From the NCBI GenBank assembly GCA_963711615.1, contig CAVQEY010000004.1:38617-102616 (forward strand): DNA of 64,000 bases, written 5' to 3'. Made by a program: the position numbers and the translations under genes. This stretch comes from an uncultured Actinomycetota bacterium. Its GTDB lineage: Bacteria; Actinomycetota; Actinomycetes; Propionibacteriales; Nocardioidaceae. This document shows positions 47,638 through 56,636 of the stretch, one piece after another. Every line of letters begins with the position of its first letter. The stretch's first letter is position 1. The notes beneath the pieces were generated by a model. It ran no database searches, had not been told where the DNA came from, and saw nothing but the letters and a program-made list of their open reading frames with translations.

Positions 47638-48756
47638 ATGCGAGTCGGAATTCCTACCGAGGTCAAGAACCACGAGTACCGCGTGGCCATCACCCCAGCC
47701 GGCGTCACCGAGCTGGTACGCCGCGGCCACGAGGTCACCATCCAGGCAGGAGCCGGCGTCGGCTCCTCCATCACTGACGACGATTACGCGGCGGCGGGCG
47801 CCTCAATGCTCGACTCTGCGGACGAGGTCTGGGAGGGAGCAGATCTCGTCCTCAAGGTCAAGGAGCCGGTCGCCGAGGAGTGGCACCGCATGCGCCGAGG
47901 CCAGGTGTTGTTCACGTATCTGCACCTGGCTGCCGCCGCTGACGTCACGGAGGCCGTGCTCGACAGCGGCATCACCGCGATCGCTTACGAGACCGTTCAA
48001 CGCCGCGATGGATCGCTTCCGCTGCTGGCTCCGATGTCCGAGGTGGCGGGTCGTCTCGCCACCCAGGTCGGCGCCTACCACCTGATGCGACCGCTCGGGG
48101 GGCGCGGCGTGCTCATGGGCGGAGTGCCCGGCACCGAGCCCGCCAACGTCGTCATCATCGGTGGCGGAGTCTCCGGCACCCACGCCGCCGACATGGCCGT
48201 CGGCCTGCACGCCGACGTCACGATCCTCGACCTCAGTGTCCCCCGTCTGCGCGAGCTCGACTCGCGCTACCGCGGTCGGGTCCGAACCATCCACTCCAGC
48301 GCCCACGCCATCGAGGAGGCCGTGCTCGACGCCGACCTCGTCGTCGGCGCCGTCCTGGTGCCGGGTGCCCGCGCGCCGAAGCTGGTGAGCAACGAGCTGG
48401 TGTCGCGGATGCGTCCAGGCTCGGTGCTCGTCGACATCGCCATCGACCAGGGCGGCTGCTTCGAGGACTCGCACCCCACCACGCACGCCGAGCCCACGTT
48501 CCGTGTCCACGAGTCGGAGTTCTACTGCGTCGCGAACATGCCTGGCGCCGTGCCGCGTACATCCACGTACGCACTGACCAGCGTGACCATGCCCTACGTC
48601 CTCGCGATCGCCGAGCACGGCTGGCACGACGCGCTGGCCGAGGACGCCGACCTGTCCCTCGGCCTGAACGCCCACGACGGGCGTCTGTATCACCACTCCG
48701 TCGGCGAGGCGCTCGGCATCGAGACGGCCGATCTGCTGCCCCTGCTCGCCGGCTGA
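47638..48756 (+). CDS. ald: Alanine dehydrogenase
   Basis: GIPTEVKNHEYRV, KVKEP, FTYLHLAA, LLAPMSEVAGR, DIAIDQGGCFE, VANMPGAVPRTST. Confidence 0.97.
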   Translation: MRVGIPTEVKNHEYRVAITPAGVTELVRRGHEVTIQAGAGVGSSITDDDYAAAGASMLDSADEVWEGADLVLKVKEPVAEEWHRMRRGQVLFTYLHLAAAADVTEAVLDSGITAIAYETVQRRDGSLPLLAPMSEVAGRLATQVGAYHLMRPLGGRGVLMGGVPGTEPANVVIIGGGVSGTHAADMAVGLHADVTILDLSVPRLRELDSRYRGRVRTIHSSAHAIEEAVLDADLVVGAVLVPGARAPKLVSNELVSRMRPGSVLVDIAIDQGGCFEDSHPTTHAEPTFRVHESEFYCVANMPGAVPRTSTYALTSVTMPYVLAIAEHGWHDALAEDADLSLGLNAHDGRLYHHSVGEALGIETADLLPLLAG

Positions 48757-48764
48757 CCGACCGG

Positions 48765-50777
48765 TCACACTGCCCGGCGGGGGTGCCGGGCCCCGGGCGG
48801 CTGAGAAGGTAGAGCATGTGGATCGGCTGGATCGAGCTCGACCTGCGTCTGGGTGACGTGCACTCGCTGAAGACGAAGCGCTCCATCGTGCGGCCGATCG
48901 TCTCCGAGCTTCGACGTCGCTTCCAGGTCACCGCTGCCGAGACGGACCACCTGGACCAGCACCGACGAGTCGGCATCGGTGCGAGCATCGTCGCCGCCGA
49001 CCGCGCCCACGTCGTCGAGGTGCTCGACGCGATCGAGCAGCTCGTCGCCTACCACCCCGAGGTGGAAGTGCTGTCCGCCCGCCGCCACATGGTGACGGCG
49101 GACGACTGACCACATCCGACGATCCTTGCCGCGACGTCCGAGGATGGCCACGCCGACGAGGGCAGCCGCGCCGAGCGCCGTCCACCGGCCTCGGTGCGAC
49201 TCCGGCTTCACGACGGTCACCGGCAAGTCGGCATCACGACCGATCGTGTACGACCACGCTGCTGCCGGTGCAGCTGATGGCACCGGACCGAACAGTCCGA
49301 TCCGACCCATCGACTCGCGATTGGTGAGGATCGACAGGCCGAGGACGGTCAGCATGCCGCCCATCAGCAGTGTCCACAACGACGTGCCGCCCGTGTCGGG
49401 CAGCAGGGCTGCCTTGTCGGGGTCGTCGCCGTCCTCGTCCTCGTCCTCGTCGCATTCCTCGTCCGACTCTTTATCGTCGTCGAGGGCACGCACGTCGCCG
49501 GACCCGTCCTCGTCGGACTCTTCATCGTCGGACTCCTCCGGGCACTCCTCTTCGCCTGGCTCATCGGGGACCTGGCAGTTGTTGAAGTAGATCGTCTGAC
49601 CATCGCCATCCCAGTTCAGACCCGGGAAGGACCCGTTCTCGTGCTCGAACGGCGGGATGATGTCGCCCCAGTCGGACGCACCCGGGAAGAACACCGGAGC
49701 GTCATGCCCGGCGTGACCATTCTGGTTGAGGATGCTGTTCACGGAGACGTTGATCTGGCCCGGCCCGTACGGCTGCTGCGGATTGCTGTCCGCATGGCAG
49801 ATGTCGACCTTCTCCTCGCCGGGCGGCGGCGGCTCGCCAGGCTCCTGGCAGTTGTTGAACCAGAACGCCTGCCCATCGTCATCCCAGTTCAGACCCGGGA
49901 AGGACCCGTCCTTGTGCTCGAACGGCGGGATGATGTCGCCCCAGTTGGCCGCGGGGAAGACCGGACCGGTGTGGGTCGCGTGACCGTTCGGGTTGACGAT
50001 GCTCTGTACCGAGACATTGATCCGCTTGGGACCGTACGGATTCGTCACCGCGGCCCTGGCGTGACAGATGTCGACCTTCTTCACCACGGCAAGCGCGACC
50101 ACGCCTTCGCAGGCGACGGCCGGTGTTTCAGCGGACTCACCCTCCGTAGTTTCCCCCTCGGCCAAGGCCGGGGTGACGATTTCGGTGTCGGTGGAGGCTT
50201 CGCAGGCCTCAGCTGCGGTGCCGCCACCTGGTGCCGACCCGTCAGTCGGGGCGGTGCAGGCGTTGTTGTAGATCGACTTGCCGGTGTCCCAGTTCTGGCC
50301 ACCGAAGCCGCCACCGCTGTAGGTGAACGGCTTGACGATGTCGCTTCTACCGATGCCGGAGCCGTCGAGCACACTCGCCGCACTGACATTGCCGGTGGTG
50401 AACGTGCCGGATCCAGAGGCCTGGCAGACCTTGACGGTCTTGCCGTCGATCGTGGGGCCTAGATCATCGACGGGGTCGGCTTCGCTGGTCAGCGCCTTCG
50501 CCGTGCTCGGTGTCGACCCGCCGCCGCTCTGGTTGGAGCCGGAACCTGGTGTGTTACCCGGTGTCGGCTCACCCGTCGGCGTCTCCGCTGGGGTGGTGGG
50601 GGTCTCCGCGGGCGGCGGAGTCGTCTCCACCGGCGGTGGAGGTGTTTCTGGCGTCGGCTCGCTGGTCTGAGACGGGGTCACCGTCTCGGTGGAACCATCG
50701 CCTTCTTGGGCCACGGCCGGCGACGCTGAGAAAGCGAAGGCGCCCACGATGGCCAGAGCAATGAGAACCCTGCGCAT
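48765..50777 (-). CDS. LPDTG-anchored surface protein with 2 intact and 1 degenerate Cys/His-rich repeats; ORF runs on antisense through DUF503
   Basis: Signal peptide, Pro/Thr/Glu linker, repeats at 50256-50442, 49845-50081 and 49572-49813, acidic tract, LPDTG at 49389-49403 plus TM. Functional end is probably near 49110. Confidence 0.8.
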   Translation of the reverse strand: MRRVLIALAIVGAFAFSASPAVAQEGDGSTETVTPSQTSEPTPETPPPPVETTPPPAETPTTPAETPTGEPTPGNTPGSGSNQSGGGSTPSTAKALTSEADPVDDLGPTIDGKTVKVCQASGSGTFTTGNVSAASVLDGSGIGRSDIVKPFTYSGGGFGGQNWDTGKSIYNNACTAPTDGSAPGGGTAAEACEASTDTEIVTPALAEGETTEGESAETPAVACEGVVALAVVKKVDICHARAAVTNPYGPKRINVSVQSIVNPNGHATHTGPVFPAANWGDIIPPFEHKDGSFPGLNWDDDGQAFWFNNCQEPGEPPPPGEEKVDICHADSNPQQPYGPGQINVSVNSILNQNGHAGHDAPVFFPGASDWGDIIPPFEHENGSFPGLNWDGDGQTIYFNNCQVPDEPGEEECPEESDDEESDEDGSGDVRALDDDKESDEECDEDEDEDGDDPDKAALLPDTGGTSLWTLLMGGMLTVLGLSILTNRESMGRIGLFGPVPSAAPAAAWSYTIGRDADLPVTVVKPESHRGRWTALGAAALVGVAILGRRGKDRRMWSVVRRHHVAAGGQHFHLGVVGDELLDRVEHLDDVGAVGGDDARTDADSSVLVQVVRLGSGDLEATSKLGDDRPHDGALRLQRVHVTQTQVELDPADPHALPSQPPGARHPRRAV
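48816..49109 (+). CDS. DUF503 family protein
   Basis: DVHSLKTKRSIVRPIVSELRRRFQV.AAE.DHLD.HRR..IG. Confidence 0.85.
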   Translation: MWIGWIELDLRLGDVHSLKTKRSIVRPIVSELRRRFQVTAAETDHLDQHRRVGIGASIVAADRAHVVEVLDAIEQLVAYHPEVEVLSARRHMVTADD

Positions 50778-50948
50778 GGGGAGAACCTCTCGGTAAGAGG
50801 AGTGGGAGTACGTCTCAGGCGACACTAGTGCCAGATGCACCGAATTGGGATGAAACGCGCAGAATTCTACGCCACCACCAGGTGCACCTACTGCGAGACC
50901 CGCGCACCCGCAGGGCGTGCGCAGTGCGGCTCACAGGTGACGGCACAG

Positions 50949-50988
50949 AGTTCGTCCGCGCGACCTCACTCGATCGCGCGGACGAACT
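50949..50988. terminator. 15-bp stem hairpin between the two surface-protein genes
   Basis: AGTTCGTCCGCGCGA...TCGCGCGGACGAACT, 11 bp past the 51000 stop. Confidence 0.65.
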
Positions 50989-50999
50989 GACGCGGTGAG

Positions 51000-52016
51000 C
51001 TACAGCTTGACGTGACGTCCAGCGACTGAGCCCTGCATCCGACCCATCGAGCCGTTGCTGAGGATCGCGATGCCGAGGACGGTCAGAAGGCCGCCGGTCA
51101 GCAGGATCCAGGGCGACCCGCCACCTGTATCAGGCAGGGATCCCTCGTCGTCACCGTCGCCGTCGCCGTCGCGGTCATCGTCGCCGTCGTCGCCGTCATC
51201 GCCGTCGTCGTCATCTTCATCGCCAGGAATCTGGCAGTCGTTGAAGAAGATCGCTTGACCGTCGGAGTCCCAGTTCAGGCCAGGGAACGACCCGTTCTCG
51301 TGCACGAACGGCGGGATGATGTCGCCCCACTGCTCTTGGATGCCCGGGAAAAAGACCGGACCGTCGTGCCCAGCGTGGCCGTTCTGGTTGAGGATGCTGC
51401 TCACGGAAGGACTGATCGGCCCGGGTCCGTACGGCTGCTGCGGATTGGCGTCCGCGTGGCAGATGGTGATCTCTTCATCGCCCGGCGGCGGCGGGTCCTC
51501 GTCGATCTGGCAGTTGTTGAAGAAGATCGCCTGGCCATCTTCATCCCAGTTCTGGCCGGGGTAGAACCCGCTCTCGGCCTCGAACGGCGGGATGATGTCG
51601 CCCCAGTTCGGCGCGGGGAAGACCGGACCGTTGTGGGTGTCGTGGCCGTTGTTCGGGTTGAAGATGCTGTTCACCGAGACGGTGATCGCCTGCGGACCGT
51701 ACGGATTGGTCTCCGCGGCCCTGCGGTGACAGATCGTGACCCGCTCCACCACGGCCAAAGCCTGGAACTCGTTCTCTTCATCTGGGGCGTTCCCACCGGC
51801 CTTCGGCTCCGTCGTCTCACGTGCCGACGGCGATTCCTCGACCTCCTCCTGGGACGGCGGGTCCTCAGATGGCGGGTCCTCCGAAGGAGGAGTTGTCGGT
51901 GCCTCGGTCGAGGCGGGCGGCTCGGCGGAGCCGGTGGAGTCTTCCTGTGCGATGGCCGGCGCGGCGATGAAGACGCAGGCAGCGATCATCGCGAGCGCAG
52001 TGAGCACCCTTCTCAT
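51000..52016 (-). CDS. LPDTG-anchored surface protein with 2 Cys/His-rich repeats (paralog of the previous gene)
   Basis: Signal peptide [13 protein letters not shown], repeats at 51507-51746 and 51231-51476, Asp/Gly tract, LPDTG plus TM and tail. Confidence 0.85.
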
Positions 52017-52141
52017 TGGCGTATCCCCCCGGATATACGAAATGTTCCGTGCGACGCTATCAGATCAGCGCGGCGATTCCGATTGAGGTCATCTTCGAGC
52101 CCGCGGCCGGACATCCGGACTCGACTCGACATACTGGGCAG

Positions 52142-53191
52142 ATGCGAAATCCTCGTGCCTTCCTGCGCCCCTTGGCGGTCGGAGCGCCGACGCCGGTCGC
52201 GGACATCCCGTTCAAGCCGTCACGGATGATCCACTTCTTCGACCCGAGCAACGAGAAGATGCAGGCCAAGGTGCCCGACATCGCGGCGAAGGTCGACATC
52301 ATCCTCGGCAACCTCGAGGACGCCATCAAGACGGAGAACAAGGAGGCCGCGCGGCAGGGCCTCATCGACATCGCCAAGAAGACCGACTTCGGGCAGACCC
52401 AGCTCTGGACCCGCGTCAACAGCCTCGACTCCCCCTGGGCGCTCGACGACCTCACCACCCTGGTGACCGAGATCGGCGACAAGCTCGACGTCGTCATGGT
52501 GCCGAAGGTCGAGGGCGCGCAGGACATCCACTACGTCGACCGCCTGCTCGCGCAGCTGGAGGCGCGGGCCGGGCTGAGCGAGCCGATTCTCGTGCACGCG
52601 ATCCTCGAGACCGCCGAGGGCGTCATCAACGTCGAGGAGATCGCCGGCGCCAGCCCGCGCATGCAGGGCTTGTCGCTCGGGCCGGCCGACCTCGCCGCGA
52701 GTCGTCGCATGAAGACGACACGGGTCGGCGGCGGCCACCCCGGCTATCTGGTGCGCACCGACCCGACGGGCGACGACATCAACGAGGGCCGCAGCACTTA
52801 CCAGCAGGACCTCTGGCACTACACGATCTCCCGCATGGTCGACGCCTGCGCGGCGAACGACATCCTCCCGTTCTACGGGCCGTTCGGCGACATCAAGGAC
52901 GTCGTGGCCTGCGAGGACCAATTCCGCAACGCCTTCCTGCTCGGCTGCGTCGGAGCATGGAGCCTGCACCCCGTGCAGATCGACATCGCCAGGAAGGTGT
53001 TCTCCCCCGATCCCGCTGACGTCGAGCACGCCAAGAAGGTCGTCGAGGCGATGGGCGATGGCTCTGGAGCCGTGATGATCGACGGCAAGATGGAGGACGA
53101 CGCCTCGTGCAAGCAGTGCCAGGTCATGCTCGACCTCGCCAAGGCGCTGGCCGAGCGCGACCCGGAGCTGGCCGAAGCATATGGCCTCTGA
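52142..53191 (+). CDS. mcl: Malyl-CoA/beta-methylmalyl-CoA lyase (Chloroflexus-type, CitE/HpcH family)
   Basis: [99 protein letters not shown]. These match my recollection of the C. aurantiacus Mcl motifs. Confidence 0.85.
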
Positions 53192-54053
53192 GCTGCTGCG
53201 GCCCCGCCGCTCCGTCCTGTACATGCCCGGCGCCAACGAGCGCGCGCTCGAGAAGGCCAAGGGCCTCGACGCTGACGCGCTCATCCTCGACCTCGAGGAC
53301 GCCGTTGCTCCCGACGCCAAGCCGGAGGCCCGCGAGCGGGTCTGCGCCGCCGTGCAGTCGGGCGAGTACGGCCACCGCGAGCTCACGATCCGCGTCAACG
53401 GCATCGGCACCGAGTGGCACGAGGACGACCTCGCCGCCGCCGCTCAAGCCGGCCCGCACGGTGTCGTCGTGCCGAAGGTGAACTCGGCCGACGAAGTGCG
53501 CGCACTCGTCGACGCGCTCGAGAAGGCCGGCGCTCCCGACCACACGATGCTGTGGGCGATGGTCGAGACGCCGGTCGCGATCCTGCACGCCGAGGAGATC
53601 GCCGCCGCGCACGAGCGCCTGGCCGTGCTGGTGATGGGCACGAACGACCTGGTCAACGAGACGTTCGCGCTGCACGTGCCCGGACGCGCGCCGCTGGTGC
53701 CGTCGCTGACCATCGCCCTGCTCGCCGCCAGAGCGGCCGGCAAGGTCATCCTCGACGGCGTCTACAACGACGTGAAGAACGAGGAAGGGTTCGCCGCCGA
53801 GGCGCGTCAGGGCCGCGAGATGGGCTTCGACGGCAAGACCCTCATCCACCCGAGCCAGGTCGAGCCCACCAACGAGGCGTTCGCTCCGAGTGAGGCCGAC
53901 GTCGAGCACGCCGGTGAGGTCATCGAGGCCTACGAGCAGGCGCAGGCCGAGGGTCGCGGTGTCGTGACGGTCAACGGCCGCATGATCGAGCACCTGCACG
54001 TGCGCGACGCCCAACGCATCCTCGCCCTGCACGAGGCCATCACCTCCCGCTGA
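53181..54053 (+). CDS. CitE-family CoA ester lyase / malyl-CoA thioesterase (Mcl2-like)
   Basis: [38 protein letters not shown]...[29 protein letters not shown]. Confidence 0.85.
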
Positions 54054-54059
54054 ACGCCA

Positions 54060-54093
54060 ACGGCGGGAGGCGACCATGGTCACCCCCCGCCGT
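54060..54093. terminator. GC-rich hairpin between convergent genes
   Basis: ACGGCGGGAGGCGACC-AT-GGTCACCCCCCGCCGT imperfect stem right after the 54053 stop. Confidence 0.55.
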
Positions 54094-54124
54094 CAGCCAG
54101 GTAGCGGCTCCGAGCCTCACCGCC

Positions 54125-54385
54125 CTACCGGTTCGCGCGAAGCCCGAACAGCTCGTTGTGGATCCGGTCCTGATGCGCGCGCATCTTGCGTCGCTGACGC
54201 ATGGACTCCAGGATCACCGCGCGATCGATCTCGGATGACTCATCCCGGGCGCGCTTCTTGCTGCGGGCCCGACGGGACTCGAAAGTGGCCACGTCCTTCA
54301 CCTCCTCTCCGTCCGTACCGGTCGTCGGTGAGGAGTCGGTGAGGTTCTGTGCGGGTATGAGTCGTGGATCGAGTTTCGTGGTCAT
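54125..54385 (-). CDS. 86-aa basic hypothetical protein
   Basis: Strong RBS AAAGGAGG before ATG 54385; MTTKLDPRLIPAQNL...RRARSKKRAR...MRQRRKMRAHQDRIHNELFGLRANR. Confidence 0.7.
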   Translation of the reverse strand: MTTKLDPRLIPAQNLTDSSPTTGTDGEEVKDVATFESRRARSKKRARDESSEIDRAVILESMRQRRKMRAHQDRIHNELFGLRANR

Positions 54386-54421
54386 AGCGCGCCTCCTTTC
54401 TGGATGTTTGGTTGGTGGGAG

Positions 54422-54459
54422 CAAAAGAAAAACGCTCCGGATCCCTGATCCGAAGCGTT
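54422..54459 (-). terminator. Intrinsic terminator upstream of the 86-aa gene (attenuator)
   Basis: Minus strand AACGCTTCGGATC-AGG-GATCCGGAGCGTT (13-bp stem, one GU pair) followed by TTTCTTTTG. Confidence 0.85.
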
Positions 54460-54481
54460 GACCGACGTACTGACAGAAAAG

Positions 54482-54580
54482 CTACGTCGAAGACACTGCT
54501 CCGGAGATGAGACCGGCGAAGAACATGGCGACATCACGGCGCGACAGGGCCGGCGTGACGGTCATGGCGTACATCTTCAA
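54482..54580 (-). CDS. Putative 32-aa leader peptide (uORF)
   Basis: AAGGAGG, 8 nt, then TTG; MKMYAMTVTPALSRRDVAMFFAGLISGAVSST*; stop lies 22 nt before the terminator stem. Confidence 0.6.
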   Translation of the reverse strand: MKMYAMTVTPALSRRDVAMFFAGLISGAVSST

Positions 54581-54777
54581 GGGGCTCACCTCCTTCGAGT
54601 GCTGGCGCTCCGCAGGGAGCGACTTGGCCACATTAGCGCAGGTCACGACGGCTGTCGAGGGTCCTGGCCGTCTGATCCGTCCAGACCCGGCCAAAAGCCC
54701 TCTCGGAAGTCGAGCCGGGCGAAACATGGGTCATTTCCCTCATGCATCTCGGCCCGGTGCGGTGTGACGCTGTCGAC

Positions 54778-55212
54778 ATGATCATCGACTCATTCAACGA
54801 CCTGAGCTGGGTGGCAGTCGCCGTCGCGACGATCGCCGCCTTCGCCATCGGCCTCATCTGGTTCGCACCGCCCGTGCTCGGGACGCTGTGGGCACGGCAG
54901 GTCTCGCAGTACGCCGGCATCGCCGAAACCGACGTCACAGACGGTGCGGCCAAGGGCACAGCTCTGCTTCCCTGGCTCGTGGCCACGGCGGTCAACGTCG
55001 TCGTCCTTGCGCTGGCGGTGGCGGCGACCGGCACTGACTCCATGGCCGACGGCGTCGTCCTCGGCCTCGTGCTCTCGGTGGGCTTCGGAGCGACGCTGGG
55101 CAGCTGGCCGACGATCTTCGCTCGGCTTCCACGGACCTGGTGGCTGCTCAACTGCGGCGCAGCCCTGCTGATGAACGGGGTGGCCGGAGCGATCCTCGGC
55201 GCCTGGCAGTGA
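54778..55212 (+). CDS. DUF1761-like membrane protein
   Basis: WVAVAVATIAAFAIGLIWF.PP..G..W, four TMs, N-G-L...GAILG.W. Confidence 0.75.
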   Translation: MIIDSFNDLSWVAVAVATIAAFAIGLIWFAPPVLGTLWARQVSQYAGIAETDVTDGAAKGTALLPWLVATAVNVVVLALAVAATGTDSMADGVVLGLVLSVGFGATLGSWPTIFARLPRTWWLLNCGAALLMNGVAGAILGAWQ

Positions 55213-55230
55213 GGCCCCGGAGGGTCGGTT

Positions 55231-56595
55231 TCAGTCCTTGAGCCTCAAGAGGTCGGAGATCAGACCGAACAGATCCGTCTGCTCGTCCAGGTCCGCCACG
55301 GCGGCTGCGTTCGGCCCGTCAGCGCTGATGGGAACCTGGACTCCGGTGTGCGCCTGCGCGCTACCCTTCGGCGCCGAACCGTACGACAACGTCATCGGGG
55401 CGCCCTCGTTCGTGAGCAGCGTGGCCGTCAGGCCCCGGGTGTTCGAACCGGGCTGGACGATCTGACTCGCCTGCCCGTGGTCGGACGTCACCAGGACGGT
55501 GGTGCGCTTGTCCTTCTCGGCGAATGCGCGGGCCGCCTGCACGGCCTCGTCGAGCGCAATCACCTCACCGATCTGTCCGCACGCGTTGGCATCGTGACCG
55601 CTCTTGTCGATGCTCGCGCTCTCCACCTGGAGGAAGAAGCCATTCTCGCCGTCGAGCAGCGAGATCGCCTTCTCGGTCATCTGCGCGAGGCTGGGCTGCG
55701 AGGAGGGACGATTGTCGTTGGGTTCGCAGCGCACCCCCGGCTCCTCGCCGCCGCTGCGGGTTGCCTTGGGGCCGACCCAGCTCACCGGCAGGTTCCCCCG
55801 TGCGAAGAGGCCGAGCAGCGGCGACTTCTGGTCGGCCCTCTCGATCACGGCCAGGGAGTGCACATCCTCGACGAGCTGATAGCCGCGGCGCTCGGCCTGT
55901 TCGAGCAGCGGGACGCCCGCGTCATCGCCGGACTCGGCCTTCTCCTCGAACGTCTCGAGGCCACCGCCAAGTGTGACGTCGGGACGCGTGCGCAGCAGCT
56001 GCTCGGAGATCGAGCCCGACCCACCGTTCTCGAGGGCCGAGTCCGGGCAGGTTTCCGTGGTCTCCTCCGGCCCCTGGCAAGAGCGAGCCGGCACGTGCGC
56101 CACCAGAGCCGCCGGCGTCGCGTCCTGGATGGCAGAAGTGGTGACATTGCCGGTCCGCAGGCCCTTCTTCTTCGCGAGCTCCAGCAATGTCGGCCGTGGC
56201 TTCCCATCGACGTCGATGCCGACCGCTCCGTCGTGCGTCTTGGTACCGGTCGCCCAGGCGGTGGCACTGGCAGCAGAGTCGGCGACGTAATCGGGCGACC
56301 CGTCCCGGCCCACGGAGTGAGTCGTGAACCGTCCGTTGTACGGCAGTGCGTCGACGCCTGGAAGGCGTCCGCCCGTGCCGTACTCGTAGTTGCGGGCCGA
56401 CGTGATCTCCGATTCACCCATGCCGTCGCCGATGAACAGGATGACGTTGCGTGCAGAGGGCTCGTCATCCCGGCCGAACCCGGTGGCCGCGACCGCGACG
56501 GCGGCGGAGGCGAGGACGACCAGGAGGACGACGGCGACGGCGATCGCCCGACGGGGCCGACGAGACCCGGCACGGCGGGAGTGGGACGAACTCAC
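55231..56595 (-). CDS. phoA: Alkaline phosphatase (E. coli PhoA type)
   Basis: NVILFIGDGMG.SEIT.ARNY, DSAASATAWATG.KT (catalytic Ser), DATPAA, FLQVE.ASIDK..H, TSDHG, HTG. Confidence 0.93.
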   Translation of the reverse strand: MSSSHSRRAGSRRPRRAIAVAVVLLVVLASAAVAVAATGFGRDDEPSARNVILFIGDGMGESEITSARNYEYGTGGRLPGVDALPYNGRFTTHSVGRDGSPDYVADSAASATAWATGTKTHDGAVGIDVDGKPRPTLLELAKKKGLRTGNVTTSAIQDATPAALVAHVPARSCQGPEETTETCPDSALENGGSGSISEQLLRTRPDVTLGGGLETFEEKAESGDDAGVPLLEQAERRGYQLVEDVHSLAVIERADQKSPLLGLFARGNLPVSWVGPKATRSGGEEPGVRCEPNDNRPSSQPSLAQMTEKAISLLDGENGFFLQVESASIDKSGHDANACGQIGEVIALDEAVQAARAFAEKDKRTTVLVTSDHGQASQIVQPGSNTRGLTATLLTNEGAPMTLSYGSAPKGSAQAHTGVQVPISADGPNAAAVADLDEQTDLFGLISDLLRLKD

Positions 56596-56636
56596 CGCGA
56601 CAAACTACCCGAGCCACGGAATGCGGACGACGACGG

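Follow-up and report, generated by a model that had tools for sequence, protein, structure and literature searches.

Two adjacent genes on the minus strand of the window, a stretch of 64,000 nucleotides from an uncultured member of the Nocardioidaceae (Actinomycetota), encode the proteins P0001 and P0002, both of which carry tandem copies of a domain of about 80 residues with conserved cysteines and histidines (the Cys/His domain). Judged by the sequences, this repeat is a real, well-delimited, widespread and so far uncatalogued domain family. We propose that it is a disulfide-stapled surface module which binds a metal, probably zinc, and we give this proposal even chances. The copies encoded in the window are the following.

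51504..51746, minus strand: Cys/His domain, copy 1 of P0001 (type A), from the profile and an AlphaFold2 model
51228..51476, minus strand: Cys/His domain, copy 2 of P0001 (type B), from the profile
49842..50084, minus strand: Cys/His domain, copy 1 of P0002 (type A), 71% identical to copy 1 of P0001, from the sequence
49569..49814, minus strand: Cys/His domain, copy 2 of P0002 (type B), 78% identical to copy 2 of P0001, from the sequence
50250..50441, minus strand: divergent N-terminal copy of P0002 without histidines, which starts with CQ, has the GHxxH loop deleted and keeps both cysteines, D-I-V-K-P-F and G-x-NW; from the sequence and an AlphaFold2 model

An earlier note on this DNA had described five copies, four canonical ones and one lacking the histidines, and exactly this set was found, all on the minus strand; only the coordinates of the His-less copy had to be corrected, from 50256-50442 to 50250-50441. 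The four canonical copies are 62-78% identical in pairwise comparisons (62-69% across the two types), and the His-less copy, which lacks a loop of 14 residues, is 33-39% identical to them. The first copies of the two genes resemble each other most, and so do the second copies; the two-domain unit was therefore duplicated as a block, and the sequences identify the two genes as tandem paralogues. The His-less copy is conserved in the orthologues P0011, P0015 and P0016.

A profile built from the five copies recovers the canonical four with E values of 1e-45 to 1e-48, which is circular, and also independent relatives with E values down to 1e-73, which is far beyond chance. A word-indexed search returned 210 relatives, and when the profile was searched exhaustively it matched 2,352 clusters (50% identity) at E<=1e-3 and 755 at E<=1e-10. 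The profile search that the earlier note had proposed as a check leads to a large family and to no characterised domain. The note had also left the domain unassigned, and it stays so after comparison with Pfam, NCBIfam, PHROGs, PDB sequences and PDB folds. Searches of Pfam and NCBIfam at E<=1 with both proteins and with the isolated repeat returned anchor models only, none of them over the repeat; Gram_pos_anchor and TIGR01167 score 11-12 bits on the window's proteins, which is below their cut-offs of 20 and 15.9. No Pfam family covers the repeat in the 80 relatives of alignment A2, the PHROGs scan gave nothing for it, and a profile search of the PDB sequences returned noise only (best E 0.07). 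The Pfam family TrAA12-like (PF22807) is matched by four of the 80 members of alignment A2 with a best E value of 2e-6, P0001 and P0002 being without a match. DUF7451 gives a sub-threshold match to P0102, a protein from Anaerolineae with a shortened variant of the domain (E 3.2e-5, 24.4 bits versus a cut-off of 27), but it matches neither P0001 nor P0002 nor any of the 80 members of alignment A2. No mention in the literature was found for the motif strings of the repeat or for DUF7451.

For copy 1 of P0001 an AlphaFold2 model was built with an alignment of 80 sequences. It reaches a mean predicted local distance difference test (pLDDT) of 94.4 and a predicted template modelling score (pTM) of 0.86. 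Along the chain the model shows two strands, a short helix, a long loop, the D-I-I bridge, a small hairpin and a final helix, in this order. About one third of the modelled residues are in regular secondary structure, and DSSP assigns a helical turn within the long loop (His40-Thr42 in model numbering). The model of the His-less copy of P0002 (pLDDT 86.7, pTM 0.76) has the same order of elements minus the His loop, which agrees with the suggestion of the earlier note that this copy is a natural negative control. The note had further proposed a Foldseek comparison of AlphaFold models; for both models no neighbour was found in the PDB (best E 3.5, TM score not above 0.24). The domain is thus confidently predicted to adopt a fold that was not found in the PDB. 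Against BFVD the sole high-probability match was an unannotated 'membrane protein' of the Arthrobacter phage Qui (probability 0.97, E 0.09, TM score 0.58).

Carriers of the domain are found in Actinomycetota, Chloroflexota, Patescibacteria and Bacillota as well as in three Arthrobacter phages, and the proteins of the family contain one to five copies. Most of the named carrier genomes are actinomycetotal, for example those of Agromyces, Leucobacter, Aeromicrobium, Blastococcus, Actinomyces, Bifidobacterium, Acidimicrobiia and Frankiales; the others include Sporosarcina, Chloroflexota, Dormibacterota and several Patescibacteria. The phage homologues besides that of Qui were identified by tblastn in Racecar and Talia1610. 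In Racecar, gp190 (L061:2357-3148, plus strand) is encoded directly after a minor tail protein gene and combines a signal peptide with a single Cys/His domain, a second region without an assigned family and MPDTG followed by a membrane tail. From its sequence this tail looks like a sortase signal.

The conserved residues were counted in 352 full-length copies extracted from the family. Both cysteines are present in all of them (352/352), and the full set Cys1-His1...His2-x-x-His3...Asp...Cys2 occurs in 300 (85%). The earlier note had listed two invariant cysteines, which was correct, and an invariant aspartate, on which a correction is due: across the family it is that of WGDIIPPF (100% in the family alignment), the aspartate of NWD being conserved in 46% only. 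Further conserved positions are Asn68 (99%), Gln74 (76%), Lys4 (60%) and Thr24 (48%).

His1 is absent from 13 copies, and all 13 have lost His2 and His3 as well. These copies fall into at least three groups that are distinct in sequence. The first comprises the N-terminal copy of the P0002 type with its orthologues, the second P0183, P0192, P0210 and P0243, in which His1 is replaced by Ile, Met or Leu and WGD by WGN, with two copies per protein and the fold residues kept, and the third P0212. What the His-less copies retain is the Pro-Tyr of NPY (except in the P0002 type), GP, WG-x-I-x-PP, G-x-NW, GQ and both cysteines. As far as these sequences go, the three histidines and the aspartate behave as one dispensable functional unit which is kept or lost as a set, and the models indicate that the site is dispensable for folding. 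Both cysteines are kept when all histidines are lost, therefore they are probably part of the scaffold. For the same reason a Cys-His-Asp catalytic triad was rejected.

A shortened variant narrows the conserved set further. In 109 copies from 27 closely related proteins the domain measures only 39-40 residues from Cys to Cys and reads CH-x(22-23)-HxxHxxD-IIP-x-P-x(3)-C. The carriers are lipoproteins of Anaerolineae (metagenome-assembled genomes of Anaerolineales and Bellilinea) such as P0102 and P0055, with four or five copies each. This mini-variant lacks both the GPVF loop and the whole C-terminal subdomain; what it retains is precisely Cys, His, NPY, His, His, Asp and Cys, two of the histidines and the aspartate being spaced at i, i+3 and i+6. 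A unit of 40 residues can contain little hydrophobic core, and a disulfide together with a bound ion is the usual way in which such mini-domains are stabilised. The groups that lost their histidines together and the HxxHxxD arrangement of the mini-variant lend indirect support to a metal site. Proximity of the putative ligands is favoured by this spacing and by the helical turn at His40-Thr42 of the model.

The conserved positions were also considered as partners of an autocatalytic intramolecular cross-link, of the kind known from Gram-positive adhesins as isopeptide, ester or thioester bonds. The stalk domains of sortase-anchored proteins often contain such bonds, with His, Asp or Glu in the catalytic role, and the high conservation of Asn68 and Gln74 would suit them. 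However, an invariant Lys, Thr or Gln that could act as partner is missing, the retention of both cysteines in the His-less copies places these outside any His-dependent reaction, and the fold is neither Ig-like nor TED-like, so that we regard a cross-link as hardly credible.

In the metal-binding model which we prefer, both proteins would be exported, folded oxidatively and anchored to the wall via LPDTG by a housekeeping-type sortase. Two domains (P0001) or three (P0002) would be displayed, with an acidic stalk keeping them at a distance from the wall. Cysteines occupy the first and the last conserved position and presumably form a disulfide staple; Actinomycetota commonly form disulfides in the proteins that they export. 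In each canonical copy the histidine adjacent to Cys1, both histidines of the GHxxH turn and the aspartate of WGDIIPPF would cluster in space and hold a single ion of a divalent transition metal, with Zn2+ as the most likely candidate. In this way the proteins would capture or buffer metal at the cell surface, and the bound ion would in addition lend rigidity to the loop-rich fold. The N-terminal copy of P0002 would have retained this fold and lost the site. The single parts of this model are not equally secure. From the conserved residues, binding of some metal by the domain has an even chance, if not a slightly better one. Zinc is the best guess because three His and a carboxylate are the classic tetrahedral Zn2+ set, yet this identity is doubtful, and a role in capture or buffering rather than a purely structural ion is more doubtful still.

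Several observations weigh against the metal site. His3 alone is replaced in about 31 copies (about 9%), so that a strict four-ligand site is not universal. The joint loss of the histidines was counted in related sequences and represents a handful of events, which makes it a pattern and not a statistic. No metal transporter, metal regulator or metal riboswitch adjoins the genes in the window, and none is recurrent near the family members. An Rfam scan of 48500-52700 gave no riboswitch, a promoter scan returned nothing, and by eye no Zur-box-like palindrome could be seen in either upstream region. Finally, the conserved His and Asp could serve a non-metal ligand or catalysis.

This last alternative, in which the cluster would bind a glycan of the wall or matrix or exert a small hydrolytic or redox activity and the proteins would be surface lectins or mini-enzymes, is in keeping with the invariant aromatic and polar residues around the site (NPY, WGD, G-x-NW) and with a fold that matches nothing known and leaves room for an activity. 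On the other hand, a tandem module of about 80 residues (about 40 in the mini-variant) that has no fused or recurrent neighbouring enzyme partner, that shows in a manual motif comparison no likeness to HExxH, LAS or cupin motifs and that matches no Pfam enzyme family makes such a function quite improbable. A metallopeptidase of the LAS or zincin type was rejected, since motif and size do not fit and no fold match was found. The 'small metalloenzyme' of the earlier note is unlikely too, because the module is small, arranged in tandem and combined only with stalk or adhesin domains, never with enzyme domains.

The partner domains bear also on a further explanation. The large relatives combine the Cys/His domain with SpaA-type, SdrD_B, fn3, VWA, DUF4215, DUF11, DUF5979 and PG_binding_1 domains, and an enzyme domain was never found in the same polypeptide among the large relatives that were scanned. 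The repeat might accordingly be a structural stalk or adhesin module, in which metal and disulfide only stabilise a small fold and which serves adhesion or spacing. Apart from the partners, which are of the stalk and adhesin kind only (SpaA-type, SdrD_B, fn3, VWA, DUF11, DUF5979, PG_binding_1), the persistence of His-less subfamilies, in which the fold is evidently useful without the site, and the missing metal-related genomic context speak for it. So does the sparse distribution, which is typical of accessory surface proteins: carriers are four of 24 other genomes of the same genus, one of the 16 genomes sampled elsewhere in the order and six of 300 in the phylum sample. But the whole His3/Asp set is present in 85% of the 352 copies across phyla, which is more than expected for a dispensable stabiliser, and P0001, P0002 and many small relatives have no folded part besides the domain, as expected for a functional head and not for a spacer. 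We therefore consider a purely structural role rather unlikely.

That the module would be displayed at the cell surface is suggested by the ends of the proteins. Among 273 family proteins, 64 end with LPxTG and 41 with LAxTG, 45 have a C-terminal membrane segment only, and 26 contain a lipobox without such a segment. When the neighbouring genes were clustered, sortase was the only recurrent neighbour (11 of 49 loci). In five of these loci, all actinobacterial (L016, L025, L037, L044 and L048, at about 6.5-7.6 kb in each), the sortase gene lies directly downstream of a single-domain family member, which suggests dedicated pairs of sortase and substrate. The draft genome of the host (2.74 Mb, 93% complete) contains three sortase genes (PF04203 over the cut-off), all on other contigs, and only three canonical LPxTG tails besides P0002; P0001 and P0002 therefore make up about half of the predicted sortase cargo. 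A third carrier of the domain in this genome (contig C1, L060:4634-6478, plus strand) encodes 614 residues with a signal peptide and one canonical copy. Its N- and C-terminal regions are without an assigned family, and it has no LPXTG.

The two genes of the window, whose GC (guanine plus cytosine) content is high with 65-73%, are composed as follows.

51000..52016, minus strand: gene 1 (P0001, 338 residues) with signal peptide, Pro/Glu/Ser-rich segment, two Cys/His domains, acidic stalk and LPDTG; from the sequence and orthologues
51948..52016, minus strand: signal peptide of P0001, 23 residues, ending AIA|QE; from the sequence
51138..51227, minus strand: acidic stalk of P0001, rich in Asp and Gly; from the sequence
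51000..51137, minus strand: cell-wall sorting signal of P0001 with LPDTG (51123-51137), hydrophobic segment, basic tail ending GRHVKL and stop codon; from the sequence, the tail being conserved in orthologues
50949..50988, minus strand: perfect inverted repeat of 15 bp directly after the stop of P0001; from the sequence
48765..50777, minus strand: open frame of gene 2 (P0002), 670 residues as read; orthologues share it down to about 49120, and the first stop is at 48765
50709..50777, minus strand: signal peptide of P0002, 23 residues, ending AVA|QE; from the sequence
49404..49568, minus strand: acidic stalk of P0002, rich in Asp and Glu, with two Cys inside; from the sequence
49289..49403, minus strand: sorting signal of P0002 with LPDTG (49389-49403), hydrophobic segment and NRESMGR; from the sequence
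49125..49187, minus strand: second hydrophobic segment of P0002 with RRGK tail, in the extension behind the sorting signal; conserved in orthologues

The signal peptides, acidic stalks and LPDTG with hydrophobic segment that the earlier note had assigned to both proteins can all be read from the sequence. The two signal peptides are, by inspection and not by a predictor, nearly identical: both start with MRRVL, continue with a hydrophobic core and end with AxA|Q after residue 23. They are followed in both proteins by a segment rich in Pro, Thr, Glu and Ser, the repeats, a stalk rich in Asp, Glu and Gly, and finally LPDTG ahead of a hydrophobic segment and basic residues. The orthologues of P0001, which are 69-87% identical to it, share the same layout, and its C-terminus fully matches the pattern of LPXTG, hydrophobic segment and basic tail at the protein end. 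In P0002 LPDTG, the hydrophobic segment and R-x-x-x-x-R are followed by a conserved extension of about 70 residues with the second hydrophobic segment. These features support the prediction that both are sortase-type surface proteins. The inverted repeat at 50949-50988 is probably a terminator hairpin between the two genes, therefore two separate transcripts are expected.

The extension of P0002 recurs in eight orthologues, the majority of which terminate immediately behind ...ILGRRxxK. The earlier note let gene 2 end at 49110, but the frame continues past LPDTG and the second hydrophobic segment and runs without a stop for 115 further codons to 48765, antisense through a DUF503 gene (48816-49109). 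Either the stop codon was lost, or the assembly contains an error at this point. The orthologue P0144 likewise overlaps the neighbouring DUF503 gene. LPVTV in the tail of P0002 was rejected as a second sorting motif, as it is not conserved in the orthologues.

Some further observations concern these two genes. P0002 contains additional pairs of cysteines in the linker (50100-50250, minus strand, AEAC...AVAC) and in the stalk (49404-49568, minus strand, EEEC...EEC), which P0001 does not have and which from their sequence may possibly form further disulfides. A near-perfect palindrome of 16 nt, GCGTAGAATTCTGCGC (minus strand, window 50857-50872), is located about 80 nt upstream of the start of P0002 and may by its sequence be a binding site of a regulator. 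In a relative, the locus L053 (ENA contig_18533) is syntenic with the whole of 48800-56600 of the window. The shared genes encode an alkaline phosphatase, DUF1761, a protein of 86 residues, two HpcH-type lyases, both surface proteins and DUF503; the orthologue of P0002 in this locus has five copies of the domain compared to three in P0002.

The closest known counterparts of a metal-binding surface repeat are the Pht proteins of streptococci (PhtA/PhtD), in which each repeat unit binds one Zn2+ via three His and one Asp or Glu and which scavenge Zn2+ (PMC3842936). Like P0001 and P0002 these are surface proteins built from several short repeat units, the conserved ligand set is the same, and surface capture of metal is what we propose here. 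However, there is no sequence relationship. The Pht motif is HxxHxH compared to C-H...GHxxH...D in the Cys/His domain, which in addition has the presumed disulfide pair and a different predicted fold. P0001 and P0002 are predicted to be anchored via LPXTG, whereas the Pht proteins are anchored otherwise, and no zinc-uptake gene is adjacent to the two genes. Membership in the Pht family was rejected, as both the HxxHxH motif and a match to the Pfam family Strep_his_triad (at E<=1) are absent. The likeness is best taken as functional analogy, not kinship.

With respect to their overall architecture of signal peptide, tandem small domains, low-complexity stalk and C-terminal sorting signal, both proteins are similar to substrates of sortases with LPXTG or LAXTG signals such as those with SpaA/CnaB, SdrD_B or the G5-E repeats of Aap and SasG. 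SpaA, SdrD_B, fn3 and VWA even share polypeptides with the Cys/His domain in the larger relatives. The G5-E repeats use Zn2+ for self-association. Unlike these stalk domains, the Cys/His repeat is predicted as a loop-rich alpha/beta fold and not as a beta-sandwich, has no neighbour in the PDB and stands outside their families. What is new is the repeat module, while the sortase-anchored repeat protein itself is of a familiar kind.

The idea of a metal site in this module is reasonable, unproven and directly testable. In its widest form it says that a new extracellular metal-binding fold, with a disulfide staple, a His3-Asp site and a minimal form of 40 residues, provides a wall-displayed layer that captures or buffers metal in monoderm-type bacteria (Actinomycetota, Chloroflexota, Patescibacteria and some Bacillota) and in some phages, and that it evolved independently of Pht; in this extended form the proposal is tentative and falls short of an even chance. 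The members of the family number in the thousands and come from lineages of soil and wastewater, from bacteria of the candidate phyla, from bifidobacteria and from actinomycetes. The family deserves an entry as a domain family, through which more than 2,000 protein clusters that have no family for the repeat in the libraries searched would gain an annotation. Should zinc or another metal be bound by the His3-Asp site, surface repeats that capture metal would have evolved independently a second time, and the His-less copies and subfamilies would be natural negative controls for them and the version of 40 residues a handy minimal unit for biophysics.

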